In this document: positions 25,563-63,099 of the stretch, piece after piece
Position numbering within the stretch: position 1 is the stretch's first letter
Layout of the letters: every line of letters starts with the position of its first letter
NCBI GenBank assembly: GCA_023249635.1
Contig: JAHFCH010000008.1
Location: forward strand, 2,810-66,809
DNA length: 64,000 bases
Reading direction: 5' to 3'
Origin: Fibrobacterota bacterium
GTDB lineage: Bacteria > Fibrobacterota > Fibrobacteria > UBA11236
Position numbers and translations under genes: made by a program
The notes under the pieces: generated by a model
Seen by the model: only the letters and a program-made list of their open reading frames with translations
What the model was told of the DNA's origin: nothing
The model's database searches: none

Positions 25563-25577
25563 AGGGCTAAGCTAGGC

Positions 25578-33524: not shown

Positions 33525-33549
33525 GCATCCCCCCTTTTGCGTTCCGTCG

Positions 33550-46477: not shown

Positions 46478-47290
46478 ATGAACGACCTCCTCCCCCAGGT
46501 TGCCGCGCTGAAGGACGACGCCGTATTCCGGCTCGGGTTCCGCGTATTGGACTGGGAAGCATTCGCGGGACCGGGGCTGTCCTCCAAGGCGGAATGGAAA
46601 ACCTGGGCCCACCGGGAATCCGCTGATTGGTCATCCTCGGCAACCCCCACGGCTCCCGTCCAGGGTATGGCTCCGATTCTCCGCCGCCGCGCCGATGCCG
46701 CCGATCGCTTGGCCCTGGAAATCGCATTCCGGCTTTCCCCCCAAGCGGGAGTCCCCACGGTATTCTCCAGCCGTCACGGCCAGGTTACCCGGTCCGCCGC
46801 CATGTTGCGGGCCCAGGCCTTGGGCGAACCGGCTTCGCCCATGGACTTCAGCCTCTCGGTGCACAACGCCACTGCGGGGCAATATTCCATCGCTTCCGGG
46901 GATAAGCATGCGAGTTCCTCGCTTTCCTCCCGGCATGAATGCTTCGCCGCGGGGTTGCTGGAAGCCATGGGTATGCTCGCCGAAGGCGCGCACCAGGTCC
47001 TCCTGGTCAGCAGCGATCCCGTGATGCCGGAAATCTACGGGGATGCGGAGCAGGGGGAACCTGCGGGTTACTCCTTTGGTCTGCTCCTGGGTTGCGAAGG
47101 CGGTGAAGCGTTTTCCCTTGCGCTTAGGACTCGGGAAGCCCATGCCACGGCGGCCGACGCGAATCCGGATCGATTTCCCCAGGCCTTGGCCTTCCTGCGT
47201 ATGCTGGCCGGCGAAAAGCCCTCCTGCGCCTGGCTGCGAAGCGGCCGCGGCTGGACCTGGTCCCGCGACGCGGCGGATGCGGGCGTATGA
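46478..47290 (+). CDS. beta-ketoacyl-synthase N-terminal-like / chain-length-factor-type protein (aryl-polyene cluster)
   Basis: About 270 aa, with no catalytic Cys. PTVFSSRHGQVTRSAAMLRAQ...FSLSVHNATAGQYSIASG is typical of the KS-CLF-like family found at the head of aryl-polyene clusters. Confidence 0.55.
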   Translation: MNDLLPQVAALKDDAVFRLGFRVLDWEAFAGPGLSSKAEWKTWAHRESADWSSSATPTAPVQGMAPILRRRADAADRLALEIAFRLSPQAGVPTVFSSRHGQVTRSAAMLRAQALGEPASPMDFSLSVHNATAGQYSIASGDKHASSSLSSRHECFAAGLLEAMGMLAEGAHQVLLVSSDPVMPEIYGDAEQGEPAGYSFGLLLGCEGGEAFSLALRTREAHATAADANPDRFPQALAFLRMLAGEKPSCAWLRSGRGWTWSRDAADAGV

Positions 47291-48063
47291 AATTCCTATG
47301 GCGCGTCTGGCGCACCCTGGCCACCCTGTGGTGCTTCTTCACCTTCGCCGTGGGCGGCGCCGTGTTGGGGACAACCATCATTCCCCTGGTCTGGCTCCGC
47401 TGGCGCAAACAAGAGGATCGCCACCGCGTAGGCCGCAACATAGTCCGCTGGTCTTTTTTCCTTTTCGTGTGGATGATGCGCATCACCGGCGTGTTGAAGT
47501 TGCGCATCGAAGGCAGGGAAACCCTGCTGCGTTCCGGCAATCTGGTGCTTGCCAACCACCCCACCCTGATCGATTTCGTGATCCTGGCCTCGGTGGTTCC
47601 GCAAGCCGATTGCGTGGTCAAAGGCGAGCTGGAACGCGATTGGTTCAAGCGTTGGGGAGTGAAGCTGGCGGGATACATTCCCAACCATGACGGCGAATCC
47701 ACCGTGGCGCAAGCGCGCCGCAGCCTCGACTCGGGCAATAACATGATCATTTTCCCGGAAGGGACGCGCACGCTTCCCGGAATGCCCGTGAAGTTCCAAA
47801 AAGGCGCGGCCCAGGTGGCCGTACGCATCAAGCAGGACATCACCCCCGTTTTCATCCAGAGCACGCCTTCCAATCTGGAAAAAGGCGGCGCCTGGTACCT
47901 GGCCCCCAAGCATCCCATCCGCATCGTCATGCGCGTGAAAGCAGGCATCCCGGTGAAGCCGTTCCTCAGCGCGCGGCCGGATCAACCCGCCTTGGCGGCG
48001 CGGGATCTGAACGAGCATCTTCAGCAATTCTTCAATAAGGAAGTCGCCCATGCCCGAGCTTGA
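47287..48063 (+). CDS. lysophospholipid/glycerol-phosphate acyltransferase (PlsC-like)
   Basis: HxxxxD motif (NHPTLIDFVIL) and FPEGTRT motif. Overlaps the upstream stop by 4 nt. Confidence 0.75.
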   Translation: MKFLWRVWRTLATLWCFFTFAVGGAVLGTTIIPLVWLRWRKQEDRHRVGRNIVRWSFFLFVWMMRITGVLKLRIEGRETLLRSGNLVLANHPTLIDFVILASVVPQADCVVKGELERDWFKRWGVKLAGYIPNHDGESTVAQARRSLDSGNNMIIFPEGTRTLPGMPVKFQKGAAQVAVRIKQDITPVFIQSTPSNLEKGGAWYLAPKHPIRIVMRVKAGIPVKPFLSARPDQPALAARDLNEHLQQFFNKEVAHARA

Positions 48064-48322
48064 GGCAGAGATCAAGGATCTCATAATCCAAAGCCTCCGC
48101 CTGGAGGATATCACGCCGGCTTCCATCGACGCCGAAGCCGCGATTTTCGGGGAAGGCCTCGGGCTCGATTCCATCGACGCCTTGGAACTGGGCATCGCCG
48201 TGCAGAAGAAGTACGGCATCAAGATGAGCGCGGATGCGGCCGAAAATAAGCTGCATTTCGCCAGCGTCCGCAACCTTGCGCGTTTCGTGGAAAGCCGCCG
48301 CGCGGCTACGGAGCGGACATGA
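48050..48322 (+). CDS. acyl carrier protein 1
   Basis: About 90 aa, with the phosphopantetheine site LGLDSIDALEL. Confidence 0.75.
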   Translation: MPELEAEIKDLIIQSLRLEDITPASIDAEAAIFGEGLGLDSIDALELGIAVQKKYGIKMSADAAENKLHFASVRNLARFVESRRAATERT

Positions 48323-48573
48323 GCCTCAAGACCAAGCCGGAAATCATGGCGGCGGTGATCGCCTCGCTCCACGAGACCTTCGGCATCGAGATGGAGCGCC
48401 TCAAACCGGAGGCGCAATTGTACCAGGACCTGGAGATCGACAGCATCGATGCCATTGATCTCATGGTTAAGCTGCAAAAGCTGATCGGGAAGCGTATGCA
48501 GCCCGAAGCCTTCAAGACCGTGCGTACCATCGACGACGTGGTCAACGTGATCGAGAAGCTGGTCAACGAGTAA
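48319..48573 (+). CDS. acyl carrier protein 2
   Basis: 84 aa, with LEIDSIDAIDLM. Overlaps ACP1 stop. Confidence 0.75.
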   Translation: MSLKTKPEIMAAVIASLHETFGIEMERLKPEAQLYQDLEIDSIDAIDLMVKLQKLIGKRMQPEAFKTVRTIDDVVNVIEKLVNE

Positions 48574-48576
48574 ATC

Positions 48577-49134
48577 GTGGCCTCGTTCGGGATGACCGCC
48601 CTGACCGCGGCGGTGACGGCAGCCTATCCCGTCCTTATCTACTTCGGATTGCGCCAAGGCGTACCGACCCGCTGGTTCGCTTTGGGTCTGCTGGCCCTTG
48701 CGGCACTTCGCTGGGGACGCCCGCTCGCGCGCAAGCTCCCCATCCCCTTGCTCTTGGCCATCGCGGCCGCGGTGGCCGCCCTGGCCTGGTTCCGCAGCGC
48801 GGCGTCGGTTCTGTATTATCCCGTCGCCGTGAACCTGGCGTTGCTCGTCGTGTTCGCCGCCAGCCTGGCTTCGCCGCCAACAGTCATAGAGCGCTTGGCG
48901 CGATTGCGGCATCCCGATCTGGATGCGCATGGCGTACGTTATACCCGCAAGGTTACCGTGGTCTGGTGCGGATTCTTCCTCCTGAATGCCGCGGCGGCCG
49001 CGGCCACGGCGCTCGCCGGGAATCAGGCGGTCTGGGCCTTGTATAACGGATTCCTGGCCTACTTGCTGATGGGCGCGTTGTTCCTGGGGGAATGGCTGGT
49101 GCGCCGTAAGGTAATGGCGGCGAGGCAGGCATGA
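48577..49134 (+). CDS. integral membrane protein of aryl-polyene cluster
   Basis: GTG start. 4-5 predicted TM helices and no recognisable motif. Its position matches the membrane protein of E. coli-type aryl-polyene clusters. Confidence 0.45.
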   Translation: MASFGMTALTAAVTAAYPVLIYFGLRQGVPTRWFALGLLALAALRWGRPLARKLPIPLLLAIAAAVAALAWFRSAASVLYYPVAVNLALLVVFAASLASPPTVIERLARLRHPDLDAHGVRYTRKVTVVWCGFFLLNAAAAAATALAGNQAVWALYNGFLAYLLMGALFLGEWLVRRKVMAARQA

Positions 49135-50849
49135 CGCCCTGGATGGATCTCGCGAAGCTGGCCCAGGGAAACGGGCAACGCGGCCTGGTTGGGCTGGCCC
49201 CCGGCCAGGATTGGGCTGCCTTGATGCGTGCGCGGGAAGCTTGGAGCGCCGCCGTCATGGCTGCGGGCGCGCGCCGTGTGGCGCTGTACTGTACCGATAC
49301 CTTCGAATTCGCCGGGGCCTTGCTGGGAATCTGGAGCGCGGGTGCCACCGCGGTTTTGCCGGGAGACGCTACGGAAATAACCACCGCCGGCTTGCGGAGC
49401 CAGGTGGACGCATTCGTGGGGGAGTTCCCCGCATCCGTCGCCCCGGGTCTGATCGCCGCGGCGAGTTCCCATCGGGCTGCCGCAACCAGCGGGAGCACGC
49501 AGCCGGCGCGCCCCTTCCCGGAATTGCCGCTGGTCCTCTTTACCTCCGGTTCCACCGGCGTTCCCATCGCGGTCTCCAAGACCCGCTCCGATCTGGAGAA
49601 CGAATTGCGCGGACTGCAAGCCGCGCTGGGAGCGGATCTCCGCGCCGAGCGCGTTTTGTCCACCGTGAGCCATCAGCATATCTATGGTCTTCTCTTCCGC
49701 TGCTTATGGCCGTTGGCTTGCGGCCGGCCTTTCGCCGCCGATCTCATCCGCTTTCCCGAAGAGCTTGCCGATCGGTTGGGGAATCCCGGGACCGCCTTGC
49801 TGGTCGCCTCGCCGGCTTTCCTCAAGCGCATGCACCAGGCCCGGTCTCTCGAGCAGCTGCCGCATCCCCCGGAAACCGTATTCTCCTCCGGAGGCCCGCT
49901 GGCCTGGGACGCCGCCGAGGCCTGCGCTCGCATGTTCGCATCGTATCCCATCGAGATCTACGGGAGCACGGAAACGGGCGGCATCGCCTGGCGCCGCCGC
50001 AACCGGGAAGACCAGGCCTGGACGCCCTTTTCCGGAGTGGTTCCCGCCATCGCGGAAGATGGGACGCTCTCCCTGACCGCATCGCCCTATGTATCCTCCC
50101 CGTTACCCATGGCGACCGGCGACCTGGCCCGCATGGAAGGCGGGTCTCTCCGGTTGCTGGGCCGCGCGGATCGCATCGTGAAACTCGAGGAGAAGCGCCT
50201 CTCGCTGACCGCCATGGAAGCACTCCTGGCGCGGCATCCGCGCATGGCGGAAGCGCGCCTGCTGGTGCTCCCGGGCGAACGCGAAACTTTGGCCGCCGTC
50301 CTGCGCCTTGACGATGGCAGCGTCCCGTTGCGCGGGAGCGCGGAGCGCGAAGCGCTGGTGCGGGAACTGCGCGAGCACCTGGCGCAAGGGTTCGAGCGCG
50401 TGCTGTTGCCCCGGCGTTGGCGCATCGTCGCCGCCCTGCCGGTGAACGCGGCCGGAAAAACCACCCAAGCGCTCTTGGCGGAATTGTTCCGACCTTTGTT
50501 GGGACCCTGCATCACCGCGGAACGACGGGGAGAATCGGGCGCAACGCTCCTGGATTTGGATATCCATCCGGAACTCGAGCATTTCCGCGGCCATTTCCCG
50601 GAAGGGGCTTTATTGCCCGGCGTGGTGCAATTGGATTGGGCCATCCGCGAGGGTCAAAGGCGATTCGGCCCTTTCGGCGCCTTCCGCGGATTACGGGTGC
50701 TTAAATTCCAACGCCCCATCACGCCCGGTATGCGAGTGACCCTGGAGTTGACCCATCTGCCCGCCAAAGGCGCGATCGCCTTCGCATACGATTCCGCCGC
50801 CGGCCGCCATGCCGCCGGTCAAGCGATATTCGCTCCGGTGGCAGCGTGA
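49131..50849 (+). CDS. AMP-dependent synthetase/ligase fused to C-terminal hotdog (FabA/FabZ-like) dehydratase domain
   Basis: AMP-binding motifs (LFTSGSTGVPIAV, EIYGSTETGGIAW). The C-terminal ~130 aa (IHPELEHFRGHFPEGALLPGVVQLDWAI) are a hotdog dehydratase. Confidence 0.7.
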   Translation: MTPWMDLAKLAQGNGQRGLVGLAPGQDWAALMRAREAWSAAVMAAGARRVALYCTDTFEFAGALLGIWSAGATAVLPGDATEITTAGLRSQVDAFVGEFPASVAPGLIAAASSHRAAATSGSTQPARPFPELPLVLFTSGSTGVPIAVSKTRSDLENELRGLQAALGADLRAERVLSTVSHQHIYGLLFRCLWPLACGRPFAADLIRFPEELADRLGNPGTALLVASPAFLKRMHQARSLEQLPHPPETVFSSGGPLAWDAAEACARMFASYPIEIYGSTETGGIAWRRRNREDQAWTPFSGVVPAIAEDGTLSLTASPYVSSPLPMATGDLARMEGGSLRLLGRADRIVKLEEKRLSLTAMEALLARHPRMAEARLLVLPGERETLAAVLRLDDGSVPLRGSAEREALVRELREHLAQGFERVLLPRRWRIVAALPVNAAGKTTQALLAELFRPLLGPCITAERRGESGATLLDLDIHPELEHFRGHFPEGALLPGVVQLDWAIREGQRRFGPFGAFRGLRVLKFQRPITPGMRVTLELTHLPAKGAIAFAYDSAAGRHAAGQAIFAPVAA

Positions 50850-51583
50850 GCTTCAAACCCTGCATCGTGATTCCCGTCTATGAGCATTCCAAGCCCTTGG
50901 CTGCGGTGCTGGAACGCCTGTCCCCGGCGGGGATTCACTGCATCGTGGTGGACGACGGATCCGGCGCCGCTTGCCGTTCGGAACTCGCGGCCCTGGCATC
51001 CCTACGTACCACCCAGGTTACCCTGGTCCGCAGGCCCGCCAATGGCGGAAAGGGCGCGGCGGTCAAGACCGGTCTCCGGCACGCGGGGGAAGCCGGATAC
51101 ACCCATGCGCTGCAGGTGGATGCGGACGGGCAGCATGATCTGGACGCCTTGCCCCGCCTGTTGGCCGCGGCGGAAGCGGAGCCGTTGGCGGTAATCTGCG
51201 GCGCGCCCAGCTTCGATGCCACCGTGCCGGCATCGCGGCTGTACGGCAGACGGCTCACCAATTTCTGGATCCGCGTGAATACCTTGTCGGGAGCCATTCC
51301 CGACGGTATGTGCGGCCTGCGCGTCTATCCTCTCGCGTCCACCTTGCGTACGCTCGCGTCCGCGCGCACCGGCGACCGGATGGATTTCGATCCGGAGGTG
51401 CTGGTGCGCCTCAAATGGGCCGGCGTGCCCATGCGCTTCCTGCCCGTCGCTGTGCACTATCCCGTGGACGGCGTTTCCCATTTCCGCATGGGCAAGGACA
51501 ATGCGCTCATCTCATGGATGCATACGCGCCTGTTTTTTGGGATGCTGCTGCGCGCGGTACCCATGCTGTTGGAGCGCGCATGA
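50846..51583 (+). CDS. family-2 glycosyltransferase
   Basis: CIVIPVYEHSKPLAAVLERL...IVVDDGSGA...GKGAAVKTGL...VDADGQHD. Confidence 0.75.
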   Translation: MSFKPCIVIPVYEHSKPLAAVLERLSPAGIHCIVVDDGSGAACRSELAALASLRTTQVTLVRRPANGGKGAAVKTGLRHAGEAGYTHALQVDADGQHDLDALPRLLAAAEAEPLAVICGAPSFDATVPASRLYGRRLTNFWIRVNTLSGAIPDGMCGLRVYPLASTLRTLASARTGDRMDFDPEVLVRLKWAGVPMRFLPVAVHYPVDGVSHFRMGKDNALISWMHTRLFFGMLLRAVPMLLERA

Positions 51584-52533
51584 AGACGCCCGCCAGCCCT
51601 ACTGCGGTGGGCCATTGGGCCAATCGGGCGGAAATCGGCACCGCTACGGGATTGCGCTTCCTCTTCGAAGTGAGCCGCCGCCTGGGCCGCTGGCCTTTCC
51701 GAATCGTGCTGTTCCCGGTGGTTTTATACTTTTTCCTCTCCCAAAGGACCAAGCGCGCCGACTCCCGCCTCTATCTGGAACGGGTGCGGGCCGCCATGGG
51801 TCGGCCAGGCAAGCCATCGCGGCTGCTCGTGTTCCGGCACTTTCTGGTCCTGGGGGAAGGCATCCTCGATCGGATCCTCGCTTGGGATCCCCGCTCCAAG
51901 TCTCCGCGCATCACGCGCCATGGGCGCGAGGCGGTGGCCCGGCATCTTGATCAAGGCAAAGGCGTGCTCCTGATCGGATCCCATCTCGGGAACCTGGAAG
52001 CGGCCCGCCACCTGGCCCTGACCGAGAGGAAAGTCCGGGTGAACGTGTTGGTGCATACGCGCCATAACCCGGGATTCATTGGACTGATGAAACGCATCAA
52101 CCCCGACAGCCAGCTTTCCCTGATCCAGGTGACGGAGATGAATCCCGCTACGGCCATGCTGCTCAAGGACAAGGTGGATGCGGGCGAGGTCGTCCTCATC
52201 GCGGGGGATCGCGTACCTCTCGACGGCAAAGGCATCGCTTGGGCGCCTTTCCTGGGGCATGACGCTCCCTGGCCCATCGGGCCCTACGTACTCGCCTCCC
52301 TGCTCGACTGCCCCGTGTTCCTCATCTTCTGCCTGGGCTCCGCCGACGCATACGACATCCATTACGAACCCTTCGCGGAACGGCTGACCCTGGAAAGGGC
52401 CAACCGCCGCGAGGTCCTGGCGGGCTGGGTCCGGCGCTACGCGGATCGGCTCGCGCATTATTGCACCTTGGCGCCCCTGCTTTGGAGCAATGTCTACGAT
52501 TTCTGGGGCGCACCGGAGGCCGCACGCCAATGA
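51580..52533 (+). CDS. LpxL/HtrB-family (lipid A late) acyltransferase-like protein
   Basis: N-terminal membrane anchor, then HtrB-family blocks (GKGVLLIGSHLGNLE, VLIAGDRVP). ATG at 51580 overlaps the GT2 stop. Confidence 0.65.
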   Translation: MKTPASPTAVGHWANRAEIGTATGLRFLFEVSRRLGRWPFRIVLFPVVLYFFLSQRTKRADSRLYLERVRAAMGRPGKPSRLLVFRHFLVLGEGILDRILAWDPRSKSPRITRHGREAVARHLDQGKGVLLIGSHLGNLEAARHLALTERKVRVNVLVHTRHNPGFIGLMKRINPDSQLSLIQVTEMNPATAMLLKDKVDAGEVVLIAGDRVPLDGKGIAWAPFLGHDAPWPIGPYVLASLLDCPVFLIFCLGSADAYDIHYEPFAERLTLERANRREVLAGWVRRYADRLAHYCTLAPLLWSNVYDFWGAPEAARQ

Positions 52534-54122
52534 CCGCAAATCCCGTTTCCCCCACCGTGGCCTTCGACGGCGGGCGCCTGCATATCGAAGACGTGGTGCG
52601 CTTGGCCGAGCGCAAGGCAGTCGCGCGTCTGGGCGCCGACGCGGGCTTCCGCGCCCGCATCGAAAAGGGAGCCGACTTCATCGACGCCGTCATCGCCAGC
52701 GAAGGCGTCGTCTATGGCGTGACCACCGGCTATGGCGAGAACGTAAGCGTTCCCATTTCCCGCAACCTGGCGGCGCTCTTGCCGGCGAAACTCGTACGTT
52801 ACCATGGCGCCGGCCTGGGCGACCCGTTTTCCGAAACCGAAACCCGCGCCATCCTGGCGGCCCGGTTGGCTTCCCTGGCCCGCGGATATTCCGGCGTCAG
52901 CTTCGCATTGCTCGAAGGCCTGCAATCCCTGCTCGAAAAGGACATCCTGCCGATCATCCCCGAAGAGGGATCGGTGGGGGCCAGCGGCGATCTCACGCCT
53001 TTGTCGTACGTGGCGGCGGTACTCTGCGGTGATCGGGAAGCGCGCCAGCGCGGCGAAACCGTGCCCGCCTCCCAAGCCCTGCGCGCCGCAGGGCTCAAGC
53101 CATATACCTTGCGGCCCAAGGAAGCCCTGGCGCTGATGAACGGCACCGCAGTGATGACGGCGCTGGCCTGCCTCAATTTTTCCCGGGCCGAATGGCTCAC
53201 CCGCGTCTGCACCCGCATCACCTCCCTGGCGGTGCTGGCCCTGGACGGCAACGCGGGGCATTTCGCCGCGGGCCTTTTCGCCGTAAAACCTTTCGCGGGC
53301 ATGGGCATGGCCGCCGGCCGCATCCGCGACGATCTCGCCCGCGCCGGGCACGGCTCCAATACGGGCGCCCTGCAGGATCGGTATTCCATCCGTTGCGCCC
53401 CGCACGTGATCGGGGTGCTGGAAGACAGCCTCCCCTGGTATCGCGACTTCCTGGAATGCGAGCTGAACAGCTCCAATGACAATCCCATCATCGACGCGGA
53501 GCGCGGCGTGGTGCACCATGGCGGCCATTTCTACGGCGGGCATATCTGCATGGCCATGGACGCCATGAAGACGGCAGTCGCCAACCTGGCCGATCTCGTC
53601 GACCGCCAGATAGCCTTGCTGGTCGATCCCAAGGTGAATGCGGGATTGCCCGCCAACCTCAGCGGCGCGAACGGACCCGAGGCCGCCACCGACCACGGCC
53701 TAAAAGCCTTGCAGATAACCGCCTCGGCGTGTACGGCGGAAGCCTTGAAGCTGTGCATACCCGCCAGCATCTTTTCCCGATCCACGGAAAGCCACAACCA
53801 GGACAAGGTAAGCCTGGGAACCATAGCGGCCCGCGATTGCCGGCGCATCCTGGAGTTGGCCGAACAAGTGGCCGCCTGCGGCCTGTTGGCGGCGGCCCAA
53901 GGCGCGGAATTGCGGCTGCGGGCCGAAGGCCGCGCGCCCGATTCCCTACAGGGACCCGCGGGGGAAACCCTGGCCTGGGTGCGCCGACACAGCGCCTTGG
54001 TGGAATCGGATCGCGCCCTGGAAGGCGATCTGCGCGCCCTGATCGCGGGATTGCGTGAACGCGATGCGGGCCTGGCCGGCTCCGGCCCCGCCGATCCCAT
54101 GCGGGAGCCTTCCCAATCATGA
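52530..54122 (+). CDS. MIO-dependent aromatic amino-acid ammonia-lyase (HAL/TAL/PAL family)
   Basis: The GASGDL triad that forms the MIO cofactor is present (GSVGASGDLTPLSYVA). Full-length HAL/PAL architecture (NGTAVMTALA, SNDNPII). Within an aryl-polyene cluster this is most likely tyrosine ammonia-lyase. Confidence 0.8.
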   Translation: MTANPVSPTVAFDGGRLHIEDVVRLAERKAVARLGADAGFRARIEKGADFIDAVIASEGVVYGVTTGYGENVSVPISRNLAALLPAKLVRYHGAGLGDPFSETETRAILAARLASLARGYSGVSFALLEGLQSLLEKDILPIIPEEGSVGASGDLTPLSYVAAVLCGDREARQRGETVPASQALRAAGLKPYTLRPKEALALMNGTAVMTALACLNFSRAEWLTRVCTRITSLAVLALDGNAGHFAAGLFAVKPFAGMGMAAGRIRDDLARAGHGSNTGALQDRYSIRCAPHVIGVLEDSLPWYRDFLECELNSSNDNPIIDAERGVVHHGGHFYGGHICMAMDAMKTAVANLADLVDRQIALLVDPKVNAGLPANLSGANGPEAATDHGLKALQITASACTAEALKLCIPASIFSRSTESHNQDKVSLGTIAARDCRRILELAEQVAACGLLAAAQGAELRLRAEGRAPDSLQGPAGETLAWVRRHSALVESDRALEGDLRALIAGLRERDAGLAGSGPADPMREPSQS

Positions 54123-54538
54123 GCCCCACGATCTCGGCTTCCGTCGACTTCCAGGTGGAGTTCTACGACGTTGACGCCATGAAAGTGGTCTGGCACGGGA
54201 ACTACGCGCGTTACTTCGAGATCGGCCGCATGGCCCTCTTCGATAAGCTCGGCTACGGTTATCTCGAAATGGAGGCCAGCGGATTCGCCTGGCCCGTGGT
54301 CGATTTGCATATCCGTTACGTACGGCCGGCCCGGCTGGGCCAGAAACTGCGCGTGACAGCCGAGCTCATGGAGTGGGAAAACCGCGTGGTGATGGAGTTC
54401 GCCATCCTCGACGTCGCCACGGGAGAACGCCTGACCAAAGGCGACAGCGTGCAAGTGGCGGTGGAAGCGAAAAGCGGCGAATTGCTTTTCCTGACGCCGG
54501 AAATCTTCCAGGCCAAGGTGCGTAAGGCCATGGCATGA
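54119..54538 (+). CDS. 4HBT/YbgC-type hotdog acyl-CoA/ACP thioesterase
   Basis: About 139 aa. FQVEFYDVDAMKVVWHGNYARYFEIGR is the 4-hydroxybenzoyl-CoA thioesterase fold signature. Confidence 0.7.
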   Translation: MSPTISASVDFQVEFYDVDAMKVVWHGNYARYFEIGRMALFDKLGYGYLEMEASGFAWPVVDLHIRYVRPARLGQKLRVTAELMEWENRVVMEFAILDVATGERLTKGDSVQVAVEAKSGELLFLTPEIFQAKVRKAMA

Positions 54539-55161: not shown

Positions 55162-55180
55162 GGACGCGGGACGACCGGAC

Positions 55181-57496
55181 ATGTTTCGCAAAACCCTCGC
55201 CCTGGGATGGGCCCTGGCGCTGGCAGCCTGCGCGATCTGGCTCGCGTTGCGCCTGCCCAAGGCTTCCCTGGAATCGAGCATCTTCGCCTTGCTGCCCGAA
55301 CGCGCCGGGGATGCCGCCGTACGTTCCGCCTCCCAAGCCTTGCGCGCCGAAGCCGAGAAACGCTTTCTGATACTGTTCGCGGACCAAGACCCGGAGCGGG
55401 CCACCCGCGCCGCCGAGGCATACGCCGCTCGCCTCAAGACCTCGAAGGCCGTGGCCGAAGCGATATGCGCGATTCCCCCCGCGGGCGCCGGCCGCATGCT
55501 GGATTTCTTTTCTCCCCATCGTTACCGCCTGCTGAGCGCGCAGGATCGCGCCGCCTTGCGGCAGGATGGCGGCGCCCTCAAGGATATGATCCAACGCGGA
55601 CTTTACCTGCCCCCCGGGGTTTCCGGCGGTTTGGGTTTCGCGCAGGATCCCTTCGGCGTATTCGGCCGCTGGTTGGCCTCGAAGGGTTCGGCAGCGGGTG
55701 GCCTCACCCTCCAGGATGGGCATCTGATCGCCATGGTGGACGGCAAGACCGCCGTGGCCGTGCTCGGGGTTTTGGGGCCACGGGGCCGGGGCATGGAAGC
55801 GCAGTCCGCACTGGCCGCCGATTTCGCGGCCGCCGCGGAGGCAGCCCGCAAAGCCGGGCCCGTGGAAATCATCCGCTCGGGATTCGTGTTCCATGAATTG
55901 GTGGCCGCGCGCCAAGCCAACCGGGAAATGACTTCCATCGGATCGGTATCGGCGGTGCTGTTGCTGATCTTGATGCTGGCCGTTTTCCGCGGCATCCGCC
56001 CCACCCTGCTCGGCTTTCTGCCGGTCGCGGTAGGTTGCCTGGCCGCTACGGCGGTGTTGCTGCTGGCTTGGAGCGGCAAGGTCCATCTCATCGCCATGGT
56101 ATTCGGATCCACCATCGTAGGCGTGGCCGAGGATTACGGAATGCTGTTCATCGCCGGGTTGTACGAAGAAGGCCCATGGGATCCGGCCAAACGCATGGCC
56201 GAAGTCGGCCGCAGCATATTCCTGGGCATGCTCACCTCCGTGGCCGGGTATGTCGCTTTGTTCTTCGTGCCCATCCCAGGGCTGCGGCAGATCGGGGTTT
56301 TCTCCATCGCCGGGCTCGTCGCGTCTTGGATCAGCGTGGCCCTCTGGTATCCTTGGCTATCCAAAGGACTCAAGCCGGTAGGCCCGGCCTCCCGCCGCGC
56401 CGCTGCCTCCCTCGCCGCCCGCTGGCCCAAAGTCTCGCGGGGATACCTCGCCGCCGCGACCCTGGCCCTGCTTGCCGCAATCTCGCTGTGGGGCTGCTTG
56501 CGGCTATCCGTCGACGACGACGTGCGGCTGCTGTACGCGCAGGATCCGGTCCTGAAAAAGGAACAGGATCGGGCCTCGGCGGTTCTGAAAATGCCCGGTA
56601 CCGGCCGCTTCTTTCTGGTAAAGGGAGCGGATCGGGAAAGCATCCTTGCCTCCGAGGAAAAGCTCTTGGACACCCTGGCACAGGCGGATCCTGCGGGTAA
56701 CGGTATCTTGGGTGTTACCTCGTTCGTCCCCAGCGCGGCACGCCAATCCGCGGATCTGGAATCGCTGCGCAAGGCCCTGGCGGGCGGTGCCGCCGCCGGG
56801 CTGGCGCGGGAATTGGAGACTCCGGAGCTCGCCGCCCGCATGACGACGGCCCTCGATGGCGGCTCCCAGCCCTTGGCGCTGGACGCCTGGCTGGCCGATC
56901 CGGTCTCCCTGCCTTTCCGCCAGCTCTGGCGCGATAGCGCATCGGTCATTCCCCTGCCCGCCGATCTCGCCCTTTCCGCCCAGGCCCTGCGCGCCCTCGC
57001 CGGCGCGATCGGTCCCGGAGTCATCCTGGTCGATCAATTGCAGGATGTCACGGATACCCTGGCCTTCCTGCGCCGGCACCTGGTCTGGGTGCTCGCCGTC
57101 GGAGCGGGCCTGGTGGCGCTCGCCCTCATTCCCATGCTGCGCCTGCGTACGCCGGCCGCCATCGCACCGGCCGCCCTGGGCGTGGCCGCGGGACTGGGTG
57201 CGCTCGGCTTAAGCGGACTGCCTCTGAACCTTTTCGCGCTGTTGGCCCTGGCCCTGATCCTGGGGATGGGGATCGACTACGGCATCTTCATCCAGGAAAG
57301 CCGCCGCCATCGCGCCTCGGCATTGGTGGCCATCAACTTGGGGGCCTTGACCAACATGATCGCCTTCGGCATGCTCGCCTTCAGCACCACCCCGGCCCTT
57401 CAGGCATTCGGGTTGGTGCTCGGGGCCGGCCTGGGCGTGGCCTGGCTCACCGCCCCTTGTTTCTCGCCTTCGGAAGGAAATCCCCATGCATCATGA
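55181..57496 (+). CDS. MMPL/RND-superfamily predicted exporter
   Basis: 771 aa. Two 6-TM bundles separated by periplasmic domains (e.g. LFIAGLYEEG...MLTSVAGYVALFFVPIPGLRQIGVFSIAGL, LVLGMGIDYGIFIQES). Confidence 0.7.
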   Translation: MFRKTLALGWALALAACAIWLALRLPKASLESSIFALLPERAGDAAVRSASQALRAEAEKRFLILFADQDPERATRAAEAYAARLKTSKAVAEAICAIPPAGAGRMLDFFSPHRYRLLSAQDRAALRQDGGALKDMIQRGLYLPPGVSGGLGFAQDPFGVFGRWLASKGSAAGGLTLQDGHLIAMVDGKTAVAVLGVLGPRGRGMEAQSALAADFAAAAEAARKAGPVEIIRSGFVFHELVAARQANREMTSIGSVSAVLLLILMLAVFRGIRPTLLGFLPVAVGCLAATAVLLLAWSGKVHLIAMVFGSTIVGVAEDYGMLFIAGLYEEGPWDPAKRMAEVGRSIFLGMLTSVAGYVALFFVPIPGLRQIGVFSIAGLVASWISVALWYPWLSKGLKPVGPASRRAAASLAARWPKVSRGYLAAATLALLAAISLWGCLRLSVDDDVRLLYAQDPVLKKEQDRASAVLKMPGTGRFFLVKGADRESILASEEKLLDTLAQADPAGNGILGVTSFVPSAARQSADLESLRKALAGGAAAGLARELETPELAARMTTALDGGSQPLALDAWLADPVSLPFRQLWRDSASVIPLPADLALSAQALRALAGAIGPGVILVDQLQDVTDTLAFLRRHLVWVLAVGAGLVALALIPMLRLRTPAAIAPAALGVAAGLGALGLSGLPLNLFALLALALILGMGIDYGIFIQESRRHRASALVAINLGALTNMIAFGMLAFSTTPALQAFGLVLGAGLGVAWLTAPCFSPSEGNPHAS

Positions 57497-58721
57497 AACC
57501 GACGTCGCCATATTGGGCGCCGGCCCCTCGGGCAGCCTGGCCGCCGCCCTGCTGCATAAGCGCGGCATCAAAACCGCCGTGTTCGAACGGGAAACCTTCC
57601 CGCGTTTTTCCATCGGCGAAAGCATGCTGCCCCAGACCATGGAAATCCTGGAAGAGGCCGGGCTGTTGCGGCCGGTGGTGGAAGCGGGCTTCCAGTACAA
57701 GAACGGCGCGGCCTTCTGCCGCGGCAACCGTAGTTCGGTTTTCGATTTCCGCGAGAAAAGCACTCCGGGCTGGTCGACCACCTACCAGGTGGTGCGCGCG
57801 GATTTCGACAAGGTGCTCATCGACGCCGTGGCGGCCAGGGGCGTGCCCGTGCATTACCGTCACGAGGTGGCCCAAGTGGAGCCGGAGGAAAAGGGTGTGG
57901 CCATCCGCGGGAAATCCCCGGAGGGCGATTTCACCGTTCAGGCGAAATTCGCGTTGGATGCCACCGGGTTCGGACGCCTGCTGCCGCGCCTGCTTAAGCT
58001 GGAAACCCCCTCGCAATTCCCCACCCGCATGGCACTCTTCACGCATATCCAGGACGGCATTCCTGCGGGCGGTATGGATCGGCAAAAGATCCTGGTGAGC
58101 GTGCACCCGACCGACAAAGCCATCTGGTACTGGCTGATCCCGTTTTCGAACGGCCGTTGTTCCATCGGCGTGGTGGCGGAACCGCGCCTCATCGAGCACG
58201 TAAAGGCGGCCAATCCCGAAGGCGGTGAAACCGCCTGGCTCAAAGCCCTCGTTGCCGAGACCCCTTCCCTGGCGGGCATGCTCGGGAACGCGGTATGGGA
58301 TACCCCCGCCCGCTCCCTGCGTGGCTACGCAGCCGACGTAAAAGCCCTACACGGCCCTTCCTTCGCCCTGCTCGGGAACGCGGGTGAATTCCTGGATCCG
58401 GTTTTCAGCTCCGGCGTCACCATCGCCATGCGCTCGGCCAGTCTCATCGCGCCTCTGGTACAGCGGCATCTGGCGGGCGGCAAGGTGGATTGGGCCAAGG
58501 AGTACGATCAACCCCTGCGCAGAGGCGTCGATGCCTTCCGGTCCTTCGTGGATTCCTGGTACCGCGGCGGATTCCAGGACGTGATCTTTTACGAAAATCC
58601 CCAGCCTCAGGTAAAAGCGATGATCTGCTCCATCCTGGCGGGCTACGCCTGGGATCTCTCCAACCCGTACGTGGCGGATCCGAAGCGGCTCAAAGTTTTG
58701 GAGGAGCTATGCGCGGAATGA
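57486..58721 (+). CDS. flavin-dependent halogenase
   Basis: GxGxxG motif (DVAILGAGPSGS). Both halogenase signature motifs are present: IGESMLPQT (GxSxxP-like) and WYWLIPF (WxWxIP). Confidence 0.7.
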   Translation: MHHETDVAILGAGPSGSLAAALLHKRGIKTAVFERETFPRFSIGESMLPQTMEILEEAGLLRPVVEAGFQYKNGAAFCRGNRSSVFDFREKSTPGWSTTYQVVRADFDKVLIDAVAARGVPVHYRHEVAQVEPEEKGVAIRGKSPEGDFTVQAKFALDATGFGRLLPRLLKLETPSQFPTRMALFTHIQDGIPAGGMDRQKILVSVHPTDKAIWYWLIPFSNGRCSIGVVAEPRLIEHVKAANPEGGETAWLKALVAETPSLAGMLGNAVWDTPARSLRGYAADVKALHGPSFALLGNAGEFLDPVFSSGVTIAMRSASLIAPLVQRHLAGGKVDWAKEYDQPLRRGVDAFRSFVDSWYRGGFQDVIFYENPQPQVKAMICSILAGYAWDLSNPYVADPKRLKVLEELCAE

Positions 58722-58757
58722 TCGGTTGGGAATTAAGAGTATTCCCTATAATCGGCG

Positions 58758-58865
58758 CATCGTCGGGCGTCGGGCGTCGGGCGTCGGGCGCAAAGAGCGC
58801 TCTTGCAAGCATGCAATGCGCTCGCCTGCTTTTTCTTAACGCCCGACGCCCGACGCCCGACGAAA
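58758..58865. repeat. second copy of the (CGTCGGG)x4 / (CCCGACG)x3 inverted-arm element
   Basis: Left arm 58760-58790 and right arm 58840-58863. The ~49-bp core contains the palindromes AGAGCGCTCT and GCATGC and is related to the core of the copy at 10985-11106. Confidence 0.6.
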
Positions 58866-59434
58866 TCCTACCGGTACGCATCCATTCCCTGATCCGCACC
58901 GTTGTCGCGGGTACCATTCTTCTCCTTACCGACTGCTGCTTCCATCCCCATCCCCCCGCGCCCTGGCCATTGCCCAAGGTGGCGGAGGCGCCGTTCCGCG
59001 GGAACTGGGTGCAGACCTTGCGGCTGGAGCGAGGCGACCGCGAGGCGCGCTTTCTGGCAGTCATCGAAACCGACGGCGACAGCCTGACCCTGGCCGGGCT
59101 CTCGCCCATGGGACAAAGGATCATCCGCATCCTCTGGCGCGACGGCAAAGTGATACAGGAAGTGGACGCCAACCTGCCGGTGAAAATCGATGGGGAAGCC
59201 ATCCTGCGCGATGTGGTATTCGCCAACTGGCCACCCGAAGCGCTGCAGGCGATCCTGGCGGGCACCGCCTGGAAGGCGGAATTCTCCGGAGCGCAACGTA
59301 AGCTCATGCTCGGCAAACGGGTCTGGATGACGACCGCGCCCGAGACGACTCCGGACGGCGAAGGCTTGCTGGTCGACCATGTCGCGGAAAAATACCGCGT
59401 GCATGTCGCCACCGTGGAGAAGAACGCTCCGTGA
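58811..59434 (+). CDS. hypothetical (lipo)protein of aryl-polyene cluster
   Basis: The only in-frame ATG (58811) lies inside the repeat element. A hydrophobic stretch (TILLLTDCC) follows. The position corresponds to the DUF3261-type lipoprotein of E. coli-type aryl-polyene clusters. Start is uncertain. Confidence 0.35.
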   Translation: MQCARLLFLNARRPTPDEILPVRIHSLIRTVVAGTILLLTDCCFHPHPPAPWPLPKVAEAPFRGNWVQTLRLERGDREARFLAVIETDGDSLTLAGLSPMGQRIIRILWRDGKVIQEVDANLPVKIDGEAILRDVVFANWPPEALQAILAGTAWKAEFSGAQRKLMLGKRVWMTTAPETTPDGEGLLVDHVAEKYRVHVATVEKNAP

Positions 59435-60612
59435 ACGCCTACCTCTCCGACCTGGGTCTCACCTGCGCCGCCGGGGACGGGTTGGAAGCCTGCCTGGTCA
59501 ATCTGCGCGCGGGGCGCTCGCCGGGGATGCTCGCCACCGATCGTTATACCCCCGGGTCGCCGTTAACCGTCGGCGAGGTATCCGCCCAGCTACCGTCCCT
59601 GGAAGGTTACCCTGAGACCATGCGTAGCCGCAACAACGCTTTGGCCCTGCACGCCTGCGCGCAAATCCGCCCCGCCATCGAATCGGCCTTGGCCCGCTTC
59701 GGCGCCCGGCGTTTCGCCGTGGTGGCGGCCAGCAGCACCTCCGGCATCGCCGAGGCGGAGCGGGCGTTCGCGGCGGCGCGCGAAACCGGCGTACTGCCTC
59801 CCGATTTCGCCTACGCCCAACAGGAACTCGGTTCCCCCGCGGAATTCCTGGCCCGGGCCTTCGGTCTCATGGGGCCGGCCTTTACGGTATCTACCGCCTG
59901 TTCCTCTTCGGCCAAGGCCTTGGCGGCGGCCCGTCGCTTATTGCGCCTGGGCGCATGCGATGCGGTGCTGGTCGGCGGAGCCGATACCCTGTGCGCCTTC
60001 ACCTTGCGCGGGTTCTCCTCCTTGGGGCTGCTTTCCCCGGAAACCACCAATCCCTTCAGCCGCAACCGCAAGGGAATCAATATCGGGGAGGCCGCGGCCT
60101 TCTTCGTCATGCGTCGCGATCAAGGTCCGGTGCGGTTGGCGGGCGCGGGCGAGACCTGCGATGCCCATAATATCTCGGCACCGTTGCCGGGAGGCGAAGG
60201 CGCGCGGGACGCGATGCAGGCTGCCTTGCGCGATGCCGGCGCGCCGCCGCAACATATCGGTTACGTTAACCTGCATGGTACGGGTACGCCCCAGAACGAC
60301 GCCATGGAGGCCAGGGCCATGGCCGCGGTTTTCCCCCAGGGCGTCCCCTGTTCCTCCACCAAACCCCTGACCGGGCATACCCTGGGGGCCGCCGGGGCCC
60401 TGGAGGCCGGGTTCTGCTGGGCCTTATTGGCGGGACGCGCCGCAGACGGCTGGTTGCCGCAGCACGTGAACGACGGCATGGCGGATCCGGAGCTGCCGCG
60501 CGTGGATCTGGCGCCGCCCGGATTCCTGGCCGCGCAACCGCCGAAGCTGGCCATGAGCAACGTGTTCGGATTCGGCGGCACCAACGTTTCCCTAATCCTG
60601 GGCGCCGCATGA
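59431..60612 (+). CDS. beta-ketoacyl-ACP synthase (FabB/FabF-like)
   Basis: Active-site Cys (TVSTACSSSAKAL) and the two His (NLHGTGTPQND, GHTLGAAGALEA). Confidence 0.8.
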   Translation: MNAYLSDLGLTCAAGDGLEACLVNLRAGRSPGMLATDRYTPGSPLTVGEVSAQLPSLEGYPETMRSRNNALALHACAQIRPAIESALARFGARRFAVVAASSTSGIAEAERAFAAARETGVLPPDFAYAQQELGSPAEFLARAFGLMGPAFTVSTACSSSAKALAAARRLLRLGACDAVLVGGADTLCAFTLRGFSSLGLLSPETTNPFSRNRKGINIGEAAAFFVMRRDQGPVRLAGAGETCDAHNISAPLPGGEGARDAMQAALRDAGAPPQHIGYVNLHGTGTPQNDAMEARAMAAVFPQGVPCSSTKPLTGHTLGAAGALEAGFCWALLAGRAADGWLPQHVNDGMADPELPRVDLAPPGFLAAQPPKLAMSNVFGFGGTNVSLILGAA

Positions 60613-61142
60613 CCTATCCTGCCGAACTCGCCGCCGCCATCGACGCCCAATGCCGGCGGCCTATCATCGAGCTCATCCCCCATCGCCCGCCCATGGCCCT
60701 GCTTGATGAGGCCTGCGGTATGGAAGGCGATTTCTTCAAGGCCAAGGTGCGCATCCGCCCGGGAATCCCATTTTTCGCGGAGCGCGGGGAACCGGACGGG
60801 CTCCCGAGCGGAGTACCCGCTTGGGTGGGCCTGGAATACATGGCCCAGACGGTGGCGGCCTATTCAGGCGCCCTGGGGCTGGCCAAGGGCGGGACCATCA
60901 AGCCAGGTATGCTGCTGGGAACGCGTGAATACGCCGCCTCCATGCCCGTGTTCGCCGAGGGCAGGGAATTGGAAGTGCTGGTACGCATAGATATCTTTCA
61001 GGAGCGTGGCGTAAGCAGCATGGAATGCCGCATCCGATCATCCGGCGATGGCGGCGCGGAAGCGGCGGTAGAGCTCGCCCGCGCCCAGATAACCGTCATC
61101 GAAGTGCCTGACATCCGCACCCTATTGAAGGAACGATCCTGA
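60609..61142 (+). CDS. hotdog-fold 3-hydroxyacyl-ACP dehydratase (aryl-polyene type)
   Basis: 177 aa. HRPPMALLDE...WVGLEYMAQTVAAYSG is the FabA/FabZ-like hotdog core. Confidence 0.55.
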   Translation: MTYPAELAAAIDAQCRRPIIELIPHRPPMALLDEACGMEGDFFKAKVRIRPGIPFFAERGEPDGLPSGVPAWVGLEYMAQTVAAYSGALGLAKGGTIKPGMLLGTREYAASMPVFAEGRELEVLVRIDIFQERGVSSMECRIRSSGDGGAEAAVELARAQITVIEVPDIRTLLKERS

Positions 61143-61876
61143 TGAACGCCACCAAGACCGTATTGGTCACGGGCAGCAGCCGCGGTATCGGCCGCGCGGT
61201 CGCGTTGCGCCTGGCGAAAGCAGGCTATGGCCTGGTGGCCCACGGCCGCGCGCCCGGAGGCGCCCTGGAGGAAACCGTTTCCGCTTTGCACGCCGCGGGC
61301 GCGGCAGTCCGCACGCTTTGTTTCGACGTGGCCGATCGCGCGGGCGCCGCGGCCGCCCTGGAGGCTGACGTGGAAGCCCATGGCGCCTATTACGGAGTCG
61401 TCTGCAATGCCGGCATCACCCGCGACGCCCCCTTCCCCGGGATGACCGGCGAGGATTGGGATCTGGTGCTGCGCACCGATCTGGACTCCTTCTACAACGT
61501 GCTTCGGCCCATCGTGATGCCCATGATCCAGCGGCGGGCGCCGGGACGCATCGTCACCATCGCATCGGTATCGGGCCTGATGGGCAACCGCGGTCAGGCC
61601 AATTACGCGGCGGCCAAGGCCGGCGTCATCGCGGCGACGAAATCCCTGGCGCTGGAACTGGCCAAGCGCCATATCACCGTAAACTGCGTGGCCCCGGGGC
61701 TGATCGGCACCGAGATGGTTCGCGAAGAAGTCCTGGAACAGCTCATGAACCTGATCCCTTTGAAGCGCGCGGGCAAACCCGAGGATGTCGCGGGCCTGGT
61801 GGCCTTCCTGCTATCCGACGAAGCCGAATATATCACGCGGCAGGTATTCGCCGTGGACGGGGGCTTGAGCACATGA
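61142..61876 (+). CDS. fabG: 3-oxoacyl-ACP reductase (SDR family)
   Basis: TGSSRGIGRAVALRLA (Rossmann fold), NAGITRD, and the catalytic S...YAAAK (SGLMGNRGQANYAAAKAG). Confidence 0.85.
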   Translation: MNATKTVLVTGSSRGIGRAVALRLAKAGYGLVAHGRAPGGALEETVSALHAAGAAVRTLCFDVADRAGAAAALEADVEAHGAYYGVVCNAGITRDAPFPGMTGEDWDLVLRTDLDSFYNVLRPIVMPMIQRRAPGRIVTIASVSGLMGNRGQANYAAAKAGVIAATKSLALELAKRHITVNCVAPGLIGTEMVREEVLEQLMNLIPLKRAGKPEDVAGLVAFLLSDEAEYITRQVFAVDGGLST

Positions 61877-63099
61877 AGCGCGTAGTGGTCACCGGCATGG
61901 CCGGCATCTCCCCCATCGGCAACGATTGGGATTCCGCCGCGGCCGCCTTGCGCGGCAAACTCAGCGCCGTCGTGCGTATGGACGATTGGGTCCAGTACAA
62001 GGGCTTGAATACCTTGCTGGCCGCGCCCGCCAAGCCTTTCGAACTGCCCGCCGCCATCTATACCCGCAAGGTCCTGCGCTCCATGGGTCCGGTGGCCCGC
62101 ATGGCCGTGCGGGTTGCCGAATTGGCGCTGCGCGACGCGGGCCTCCACGATCATGCGGTGCTCAAGAGCGGCCGCACCGGCGTGGCCTTCGGTTCGTCCA
62201 CGGGTTCGCCCGAGGCCATCGGCGACTTCGCCAACATGCTCATCAACAAGACCACCGAGGCGATAACCGCCACCACCTACATCCGCATGATGCCGCATAC
62301 CACTTCGGTGAATATCGCGGTGCATTTCGGGTTGCAGGGCCGCGTCTATACCACTTCCACGGCTTGCACCAGCGGCAGCCAATCCATCGGCCTGGCCTAC
62401 GAGGCCATCAAGGACGGCCGCCAGACGGTGATGATCGCCGGCGGCGCCGAGGAATTGACGCCCACCGAGGCCGCGGTCTTCGATACCCTGTTCGCCACCT
62501 CGGTGAAGAACAACGATCCCACCCATTCGCCCAGGCCATTCGACAAGGACCGCGACGGCCTGGTGGTGGGAGAAGGCGCCGGGGCCCTGATCCTGGAAGA
62601 ACGCGAGCATGCACTGGCCCGCGGCGCGCGCATCCACGCCGAGCTGGTAGGCTTCGGGACCAATTGCGACGGCAGCCACGTGACCCAGCCTTCGGCCGAA
62701 ACCATGGCCGAAGCCATGCGCCTGGCCCTGCGCGACGCCGACCTGCATCCGGACGCCATCGGCTACGTGAACGCCCACGGCACCGCCACCGAACACGGTG
62801 ACATCGCCGAATCCACCGCCACTCGCCGCGTTTTCGAGCGGCGCGTGCCCATCTCCTCGCTCAAGAGCTATTTCGGGCATACCCTGGGGGCATGCGGAGC
62901 CTTGGAGGCCTGGCTTACCATCGAGATGATGCGTAACGACTGGGTGTCCCCCACCCTGAACCTGGCCAATGTGGACCCGCGCTGCGGCGACCTGGACTAC
63001 GTGATGGGCGAGGCGCGCAGCCTGAAAACGGATCTGGCCATGTCAAACAACTTCGCTTTCGGCGGGATCAATACCTCGCTGATTTTCCGGCGCGCCTGA
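61873..63099 (+). CDS. beta-ketoacyl-ACP synthase II-like
   Basis: MKRVVVTGMAGISPIGN...TSTACTSGSQSIG...VNAHGTATEHGD...GHTLGACGALEA. ATG overlaps the fabG stop. Confidence 0.85.
   Translation: MKRVVVTGMAGISPIGNDWDSAAAALRGKLSAVVRMDDWVQYKGLNTLLAAPAKPFELPAAIYTRKVLRSMGPVARMAVRVAELALRDAGLHDHAVLKSGRTGVAFGSSTGSPEAIGDFANMLINKTTEAITATTYIRMMPHTTSVNIAVHFGLQGRVYTTSTACTSGSQSIGLAYEAIKDGRQTVMIAGGAEELTPTEAAVFDTLFATSVKNNDPTHSPRPFDKDRDGLVVGEGAGALILEEREHALARGARIHAELVGFGTNCDGSHVTQPSAETMAEAMRLALRDADLHPDAIGYVNAHGTATEHGDIAESTATRRVFERRVPISSLKSYFGHTLGACGALEAWLTIEMMRNDWVSPTLNLANVDPRCGDLDYVMGEARSLKTDLAMSNNFAFGGINTSLIFRRA

Follow-up and report, generated by a model that had tools for sequence, protein, structure and literature searches.

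Aryl-polyene (APE) clusters have been described as the most widespread family of biosynthetic gene clusters (BGCs) in Gram-negative bacteria. The starter unit in Escherichia coli is 4-hydroxybenzoate derived from UbiC, and the head group is methylated. The ape clusters of E. coli CFT073 and Xenorhabdus doucetiae (apeA-R) make aryl-polyene lipids (APELs), and are built from co-directional, overlapping open reading frames (ORFs) (PMC8253772). The xanthomonadin clusters of Xanthomonas and the flexirubin clusters of Chitinophaga pinensis and Flavobacterium johnsoniae also make aryl polyenes, which differ in the source of the aryl starter and in the way the polyene is attached. Here we analyse a 64-kb stretch of DNA from a Fibrobacterota bacterium (the whole stretch is referred to as the window). 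Its plus strand carries 18 co-directional genes at positions 46478-63099, and sequence comparison makes it very probable that these form an APE BGC of the E. coli/Xenorhabdus ape type, working by the mechanism proposed below. An earlier note on this DNA had read the region as an aryl-polyene cluster with E. coli-type gene order, which is confirmed here. It had also labelled the cluster flexirubin/xanthomonadin-type, and this part is too strong, because the window has no DarA/DarB and no XanB2-type chorismatase.

The E. coli ape proteins (RefSeq genome, locus L081) were compared with the proteins of the window by BLASTP, which is the source of the identities to E. coli given here. There is a one-to-one correspondence, in unchanged order, with E. 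coli ApeC, D, E, F, G, H+I, J (as two halves), K, L, M, N, O, P, Q and R, at E-values from 2e-7 to 3e-180. From C to R the order is identical and each protein has a counterpart, at amino-acid identities of just 26–59%. The two systems have in common a ketosynthase-chain-length factor (KS-CLF) pair and a FabB-like ketosynthase, two acyl carrier proteins (ACPs), two dehydratases and FabG2, as well as the genes for attachment (ApeD/J/K) and export (ApeG/L/M/N). The seven proteins of the attachment and export set (ApeD, ApeJ, ApeK, ApeG, ApeL, ApeM and ApeN) are all matched and collinear with E. coli. The domain list of the earlier note was recovered in full by Pfam or NCBIfam searches. The genes are as follows, with percentages giving identity to the named E. 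coli protein.

46478..47290, + strand: ApeC-type chain-length factor (KS-like, 270 amino acids); Pfam Ketoacyl-synt_2, 183 bits; full-length 29% to ApeC, E=5e-31
47287..48063, + strand: ApeD-type lysophospholipid (PlsC-family) acyltransferase; Pfam Acyltransferase, 65.7 bits; 41% to ApeD, E=4e-43
48050..48322, + strand: ApeE-type ACP (starter carrier), with the DSI serine motif in its translation; NCBIfam PRK09184, 99.7 bits (cut-off 70); 53% to ApeE
48319..48573, + strand: ApeF-type ACP; NCBIfam PRK05350, 112.4 bits (cut-off 65); 51% to ApeF
48592..49134, + strand: ApeG-type membrane protein (COG4648 family); no curated Pfam family matched; 48% to ApeG, E=6e-42; start as called on the identical public contig
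49131..50849, + strand: ApeH-ApeI fusion of 572 amino acids (aryl-acid adenylating/ACP-loading enzyme and hotdog dehydratase); Pfam AMP-binding and ApeI-like; residues 49-453 36% to ApeH, E=4e-58; residues 466-563 35% to ApeI
50846..51583, + strand: N-terminal half of ApeJ (family 2 glycosyltransferase, GT2), as a gene of its own; Pfam Glycos_transf_2; 53% to ApeJ residues 3-244
51580..52533, + strand: C-terminal half of ApeJ (LpxL-like acyltransferase), as a gene of its own; Pfam Lip_A_acyltrans; 37% to ApeJ residues 248-553, E=3e-62
52530..54122, + strand: aromatic amino-acid ammonia-lyase dependent on 4-methylideneimidazole-5-one (MIO), a predicted tyrosine ammonia-lyase (TAL); Pfam Lyase_aromatic, 505 bits
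54119..54538, + strand: ApeK-type 4HBT thioesterase; Pfam 4HBT_2 and 4HBT; 45% to ApeK, E=2e-43
54535..55161, + strand: ApeL-type LolA-like periplasmic carrier, with an N-terminus resembling a signal peptide; Pfam LolA_3 and LolA; 26% to ApeL, E=9e-18
55181..57496, + strand: ApeM-type RND/MMPL exporter; Pfam MMPL, NCBIfam HAE3; full-length 29% to ApeM, E=4e-69
57486..58721, + strand: putative flavin-dependent halogenase of 411 amino acids, a tailoring enzyme; Pfam Trp_halogenase; absent from the E. coli cluster
58709..59434, + strand: ApeN-type DUF3261 (LolB-like) protein; Pfam DUF3261, 83.9 bits; weak match to ApeN (26%, E=2e-7)
59431..60612, + strand: ApeO-type elongating ketosynthase, partner of ApeC, with Cys-His-His residues in its translation; NCBIfam PRK09185, 478.9 bits (cut-off 407); 44% to ApeO
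60609..61142, + strand: ApeP-type dehydratase; Pfam ApeP-like, 51.2 bits; 34% to ApeP
61142..61876, + strand: ApeQ-type ketoreductase (FabG2); NCBIfam TIGR01831, 350.6 bits (cut-off 338.85); 55% to ApeQ
61873..63099, + strand: ApeR-type FabB-like ketosynthase; NCBIfam PRK09116, 686 bits (cut-off 470); 59% to ApeR

The assignment to aryl-polyene rather than fatty-acid synthesis is carried by the condensing enzymes. The ApeO:ApeC pair gives reciprocal matches to E. coli ApeO and ApeC, and the NCBIfam cut-offs of PRK09185, PRK09116, TIGR01831 (FabG2), PRK09184 and PRK05350 are all passed, while the ApeO-type ketosynthase fails the fabF model (187 bits, cut-off 494). Against the Protein Data Bank (PDB), this protein scores 329 bits with XdApeO (6QSP_A) and 284 bits with AbApeO (7F28_B), but at most 148 bits with FabF. 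The ApeR-type ketosynthase scores 528 bits with 4EWG and 512 bits with AbApeR (7F27), compared to 278 bits for the top FabF. The chain-length factor matches solely the two solved ApeC chains, the top one being that of X. doucetiae (6QSP_B, 88.6 bits), and the C-terminus of the fusion protein matches the solved ApeI chain 6QSR_A. Solved ApeO, ApeC, ApeR and ApeI chains are thus the top PDB matches, with wide margins over FabF/FabB. The earlier note had asked whether the ketosynthases, chain-length factor and dehydratases might instead cluster with type II fatty-acid synthesis; by these family models and structural matches, the ketosynthases and chain-length factor group with the APE families. 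Besides its ApeQ ketoreductase, the cluster has two dehydratases, ApeI and ApeP, and Pfam and NCBIfam searches found no enoyl reductase among the 18 genes.

The previously claimed run of 18 co-directional genes with overlapping junctions was borne out, coordinates included, and genes called independently on an identical public contig are the same 18. Of the 17 junctions, 15 are overlaps of 1-14 nt and the other two are gaps of 18-19 nt (in order: -4, -14, -4, +18, -4, -4, -4, -4, -4, -4, +19, -11, -13, -4, -4, -1 and -4 nt). Four starts were refined using reading-frame overlap and the independent gene call, namely those of the ApeJ acyltransferase half (51580), the lyase (52530), the DUF3261 gene (58709) and the last ketosynthase (61873). 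The cluster is probably a single operon. Its GC content of 62–66% is that of the rest of the window, and so composition does not mark the region as foreign.

The locus differs from the E. coli and Xenorhabdus clusters in several ways. ApeA and ApeB are missing and there is no adjacent AcpT; indeed, no counterpart of ApeA, the ApeB methyltransferase or AcpT is present anywhere in the 64-kb window. The ORFs at 63118-63735 gave no family matches, and a tblastn search with E. coli AcpT was also empty. In the closest Fibrobacteria relative (L001), apeR is followed directly by an AcpT-like match (20670-21029), which is also the E. coli arrangement. In the window, ApeH and ApeI form one protein, whereas ApeJ, which in E. 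coli is a single protein with GT2 and acyltransferase parts, is split into two genes. The LpxL-like acyltransferase listed in the earlier note is therefore present as a domain, but it is the C-terminal half of ApeJ and not an extra gene. Similarly, the gene described as a small lipoprotein is present and of DUF3261/ApeN type, in the position of apeN, but a canonical lipobox was not found in it and its start is uncertain (58709, 58718 or 58811). Finally, two genes have been added compared to E. coli: an MIO lyase between ApeJ and ApeK, and a flavin halogenase between ApeM and ApeN.

The lyase has the ASG triad of MIO enzymes. It scores 396 bits against the NCBIfam hutH model, below the cut-off of 539, and no hut genes are found near it. 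It is 36% identical to the HutH of a hutC-hutI-hutH-hutG-hutU operon (L082), and 54–78% identical to the lyases of ape clusters. Its motif TESHNQDKVS has Gln at the position where the operon HutH (ANQEDHVS) has Glu. This position is specific for histidine ammonia-lyases (HALs), being Glu in HALs and Gln in TALs and phenylalanine ammonia-lyases (PALs) (PMC3992019). The earlier note had left room for a bona fide histidine-catabolic enzyme; by the failed hutH cut-off, the Gln in place of Glu and the missing hut operon, the lyase is not a HutH.

Context provides clues as to its substrate. Homologues 51–53% identical to the window lyase are found in an Idiomarina metagenome-assembled genome (MAG; L045, 8371-11542) and in Aliidiomarina sp. 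B3213 (L055, 8335-11518). In both, the lyase gene is immediately downstream of a gene for photoactive yellow protein (PYP; TIGR02373, 201 and 197 bits, cut-off 143) and a gene for a PYP-type 4-coumarate ligase. The chromophore of PYP is 4-coumarate. These lyases have the same TESHNQDKVS motif and a Phe-His selectivity switch (LTRFHG), and the ape-cluster and PYP-chromophore lyases fall in one clade. The top NCBIfam model for the ApeH domain in the window is also the PYP-type 4-coumarate ligase (TIGR02372), although the score is under the cut-off, and ApeH of Acinetobacter baumannii loads p-coumarate onto ApeE in vitro (PMC12624758). Together, the operon context, the ligase model and the A. baumannii result make TAL activity likely, and hence the lyase is likely to be a TAL that gives 4-coumarate.

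The flavoprotein at 57486-58721 is best read as a halogenase, as had been proposed in the earlier note, since it matches Trp_halogenase and has all three signature motifs: GAGPSG (GxGxxG), the catalytic Lys in GFQYKNGAAF, and IWYWLIPF (WxWxIP). The Lys aligns with that of solved halogenases, and the three motifs recur in 18 homologues encoded in related ape loci, with substitutions in a few loci. The top NCBIfam model is the CmlS halogenase, under its cut-off. In the PDB the top match is 3NIX, from Cytophaga hutchinsonii (329 bits), followed by the halogenases 8ZOP, ChlB4, CmlS, CndH-type and PltA.

On the basis of homology and gene context, we propose the following pathway, with roles assigned from studies of E. 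coli, Xenorhabdus and Acinetobacter (PMC8253772; bioRxiv 10.1101/2020.12.19.423268; PMC8358021). The MIO lyase would deaminate tyrosine to 4-coumarate, and the ApeH domain of the fusion would adenylate the aryl acid and load it onto the ApeE-type ACP. The starter would thus probably be 4-coumarate from tyrosine, unlike the UbiC-derived 4-hydroxybenzoate of E. coli. The ApeO:ApeC heterodimer and the FabB-like ApeR would then carry out iterative extension with malonyl units, with the ApeQ ketoreductase and the ApeI/ApeP dehydratases completing each round without enoyl reduction, so that a conjugated polyene would result. The halogenase may chlorinate or brominate the phenol ring, in place of the missing ApeB methyltransferase, so that the head group is probably halogenated where that of E. 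coli is methylated. ApeK, ApeD and the split ApeJ (GT2 and acyltransferase) would join the chromophore to an anchor of glycerophospholipid and sugar, like that of the Xenorhabdus APE lipids, and ApeG, ApeM, ApeL and ApeN would carry the lipid to the outer membrane; pigments of this kind guard against oxidative stress there.

An outer-membrane halogenated hydroxyphenyl-polyene is therefore a reasonable prediction from the gene content. A more specific proposal is tentative, and we rate it at a little below an even chance: that the cluster makes a halogenated, tyrosine-derived APE lipid in Fibrobacterota, being a chloro- or bromo-4-hydroxyphenyl polyene on an APEL-type glycolipid anchor, by way of a clade of lyases with a Tyr/Phe-His switch that is shared with PYP-chromophore operons. 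To our knowledge, such a lipid has not yet been described for ape-type clusters, and we know of no aryl polyene characterised from Fibrobacterota, nor of a biochemical demonstration of TAL activity in the Tyr/Phe-His-switch clade.

Several observations weigh against the ape-type reading and the proposed pathway. Characterised TALs have His-Leu at the selectivity switch and PALs have Phe-Leu. The window lyase has neither, but Tyr-His (LVRYHG). Assignment as a canonical TAL from the switch was accordingly rejected; the motif alone assigns no substrate, and tyrosine specificity comes from context only. Both the lyase and the ligase score under all NCBIfam equivalog cut-offs. No function is assigned to 3NIX, the nearest of the halogenase's solved relatives. 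Lastly, neither a phosphopantetheinyl transferase nor a flavin reductase is encoded in the window, and so both must come from elsewhere.

Among the alternatives, a xanthomonadin-type cluster survives best, though we consider it improbable. Such a cluster would make a brominated aryl polyene started from 3- or 4-hydroxybenzoate produced by XanB2. A halogenase gene is characteristic of the Xanthomonas xanthomonadin clusters (PMC3691225) and one is present here, and both are halogenase-bearing aryl-polyene type II polyketide synthase (PKS) systems for an outer-membrane pigment (PMC3691225), which in the window is a predicted one. The type II PKS core and the LolA, MMPL, acyltransferase and glycosyltransferase genes also fit, but are common to APE clusters generally. 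The window however has no XanB2-type enzyme, its only chorismate user being a PabA-PabB fusion. In place of the hydroxybenzoate synthase there is a lyase, of a clade tied to 4-coumarate formation, and the gene order is that of E. coli ape.

Flexirubin proper, in which a TAL-derived polyene acid is esterified to a DarA/DarB dialkylresorcinol as in Chitinophaga and Flavobacterium, is less probable still. Its clusters share with the window what is probably a tyrosine start, through an ammonia-lyase and an aryl-acid ligase, and a type II PKS-like polyene assembly with LolA, glycosyltransferase and exporter genes (PMC3992019). The host belongs to the Fibrobacteres-Chlorobi-Bacteroidetes (FCB) group, the top solved relative of the halogenase is from Cytophaga hutchinsonii, and there are sub-threshold NCBIfam matches to FlxA (289 bits, cut-off 700), FlxB (246, cut-off 340) and LolA2_flexi (43, cut-off 125). 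However, every flexirubin equivalog cut-off is missed (the lyase against FlxA_rubin_TAL, the ketoreductase against FlxB_rubin_SDR). A search for darA/darB in the flanking DNA, suggested in the earlier note, found none: the 64-kb window, with its roughly 50 ORFs, encodes no DarA and no DarB/StlD-type ketosynthase III, and the sole DarB-family match is negligible (22 bits) and falls within ApeR. The ligase is of the ACP-loading ApeH type and fused to a dehydratase, whereas FlxY of flexirubin clusters is a CoA ligase. For attachment and export the cluster follows the gene order of E. coli ApeD/J/G/L/M/N, and the nearest relatives of every gene outside Fibrobacterota are in proteobacterial ape clusters. 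Since both DarA/DarB and XanB2 are missing from the window, the cluster would appear to be neither flexirubin nor xanthomonadin proper.

The weakest alternative is a duplicated type II fatty-acid and lipid A-related set for an unusual membrane lipid, accompanied by chance by a catabolic HAL and a flavin monooxygenase, which could draw on generic annotations (FabF/FabG/FabZ-like, LpxL-like, 'histidine ammonia-lyase') and on the conjugated fatty acid that the Xenorhabdus APE system also yields (bioRxiv 10.1101/2020.12.19.423268), but which is the least probable of the three given that the ketosynthases fail the fabF cut-off, pass those of the Ape types and score about twice as high with ApeO/ApeR structures as with FabF, that no enoyl reductase was found in the cluster, that the lyase fails the hutH cut-off, has no HAL Glu, is outside a hut operon and holds a position conserved across phyla, and that the oxidoreductase carries the WxWxIP and Lys motifs of halogenases.

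The ape-type reading was followed into other genomes by a scan based on the lyase, using one genome per species, which gave 80 loci (numbered here with L); all 18 window proteins were then run against these loci by tblastn. The closest loci are from Fibrobacteria/Fibrobacteres MAGs, at 51–84% identity per protein. In most of the 80 loci, which come from many phyla, the ape set is complete and the lyase again lies between ApeJ and ApeK. Their hosts include Burkholderia, Paraburkholderia, Pandoraea, Vibrio, Shewanella, Paraferrimonas and Halomonas, as well as Paracaedibacteraceae, Elusimicrobia, Verrucomicrobia, Chlamydiales and Planctomycetes. A Ralstonia solanacearum megaplasmid (L083), identified in a separate search of plasmids, has this lyase-containing arrangement too. 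The lyase is therefore not the distinguishing element for which the earlier note had taken it. The window differs from the clusters of Burkholderia, Ralstonia, Vibrio, Shewanella and Halomonas in its host phylum, and the genes best conserved with these clusters (the lyase and ApeR) are 49–64% identical. The ApeH-ApeI fusion is present in 47 of the 66 related loci that matched this gene, whereas ApeJ is a single protein in most of the proteobacterial lyase-containing loci and is split in the window.

The halogenase family is found in about 20 loci. In L001, L002, L009, L020, L022, L025, L035, L068, L073, L074 and L077 the gene lies between apeM and apeN/apeO, as it does here; the arrangement is thus found in about a dozen genomes besides this one, namely two Fibrobacteria MAGs, Oleisolibacter albus and three Halomonas genomes, together with Marinicella, Lysobacterales, Halofilum and alphaproteobacterial MAGs. 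The loci of Vibrio, Shewanella and Paraferrimonas have ApeB in place of the halogenase, which suggests that methylation and halogenation are alternative tailorings of the head group. One locus (L003, 5344-6564, from the unclassified MAG SMAG_U12676) has both the halogenase and the acyltransferase half of ApeJ inserted on the opposite strand, between the ACP genes. Tailoring genes would thus appear to move within ape clusters that are otherwise collinear.

The locus adds a Fibrobacterota example to a widespread and well-described family, and shows a sub-architecture with both lyase and halogenase that crosses phylum boundaries. Full-text literature searches found no paper specific to this architecture, its product, or aryl polyenes in this phylum. 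The locus neither opens nor settles a long-standing question, and it is of modest practical use: halogenated aryl-polyene lipids could be sought with it as a template, and the clade of Tyr/Phe-His lyases, tied to both ape clusters and PYP operons, is a candidate source of TALs. A halogenated Fibrobacterota APE lipid, and the lyase clade shared with PYP operons, are the only mildly novel prospects.

As the cluster might have been transferred horizontally, LptD (gene at 2495-5185) was used as a separate taxonomic marker. All its named matches are from Fibrobacteres, Fibrobacteria or Fibrobacterota, with identities of 73–76% at the top and down to 38% for Fibrobacter sp. By this marker the window belongs to an uncultured lineage of Fibrobacterota, far from Fibrobacter. 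The flanks of the cluster gave no synteny matches with the nearest relatives.

A gene of the TetR family (45696-46328, minus strand) is divergent from the cluster and had been suggested as its likely regulator. The sole promoter-like site found, a sigma-70-like site at 46306-46278, falls inside the longest TetR ORF, and the true start may therefore be at 46271. The intergenic region (46230-46500) contains merely two short imperfect inverted repeats, with no convincing operator, and in the two nearest relatives, L001 and L002, the TetR gene is not beside the cluster. The suggestion is thus unsupported, and a regulatory role for TetR is conjecture.

The organism had also been described as flagellated and as bearing a type IX secretion system (T9SS). 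The former is borne out by six tandem flagellin paralogues on the minus strand (22152-28887), which are 283-296 amino acids long and 84–99.6% mutually identical (BLASTP, all six), two of them having been checked with Pfam Flagellin_N/C. An array of six is unusually large for a genome of the FCB group. The latter is not: the window contains no gene for T9SS machinery, and its sole hint of such a system is a weak C-terminal match (26.5 bits, cut-off 600) of the protein encoded at 36394-38682 to a model of T9SS-dependent proteins.

Elsewhere in the window, a fusion of a glutamine amidotransferase and a chorismate-binding domain (PabA-PabB; 16157-18334, minus strand) passes the cut-off for pabB, aminodeoxychorismate synthase. 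No other enzyme in the window uses chorismate; this one is encoded 28 kb from the cluster and is probably folate-related. A BshC-like protein (11146-12795, minus strand), with the domain of the bacillithiol cysteine-adding enzyme, scores 199 bits, under the equivalog cut-off of 266, and its gene is near that of a family 4 (GT4) glycosyltransferase (9089-10312); these genes could represent a low-molecular-weight thiol pathway in Fibrobacterota. Several secreted-looking proteins related to carbohydrates are encoded at 29314-35226 and 42539-45659. They comprise two tandem proteins with a 3-keto-disaccharide hydrolase domain, two GSDH-type dehydrogenases, a Laminin_G_3 protein and a GxGYxYP glycoside-hydrolase-like protein.

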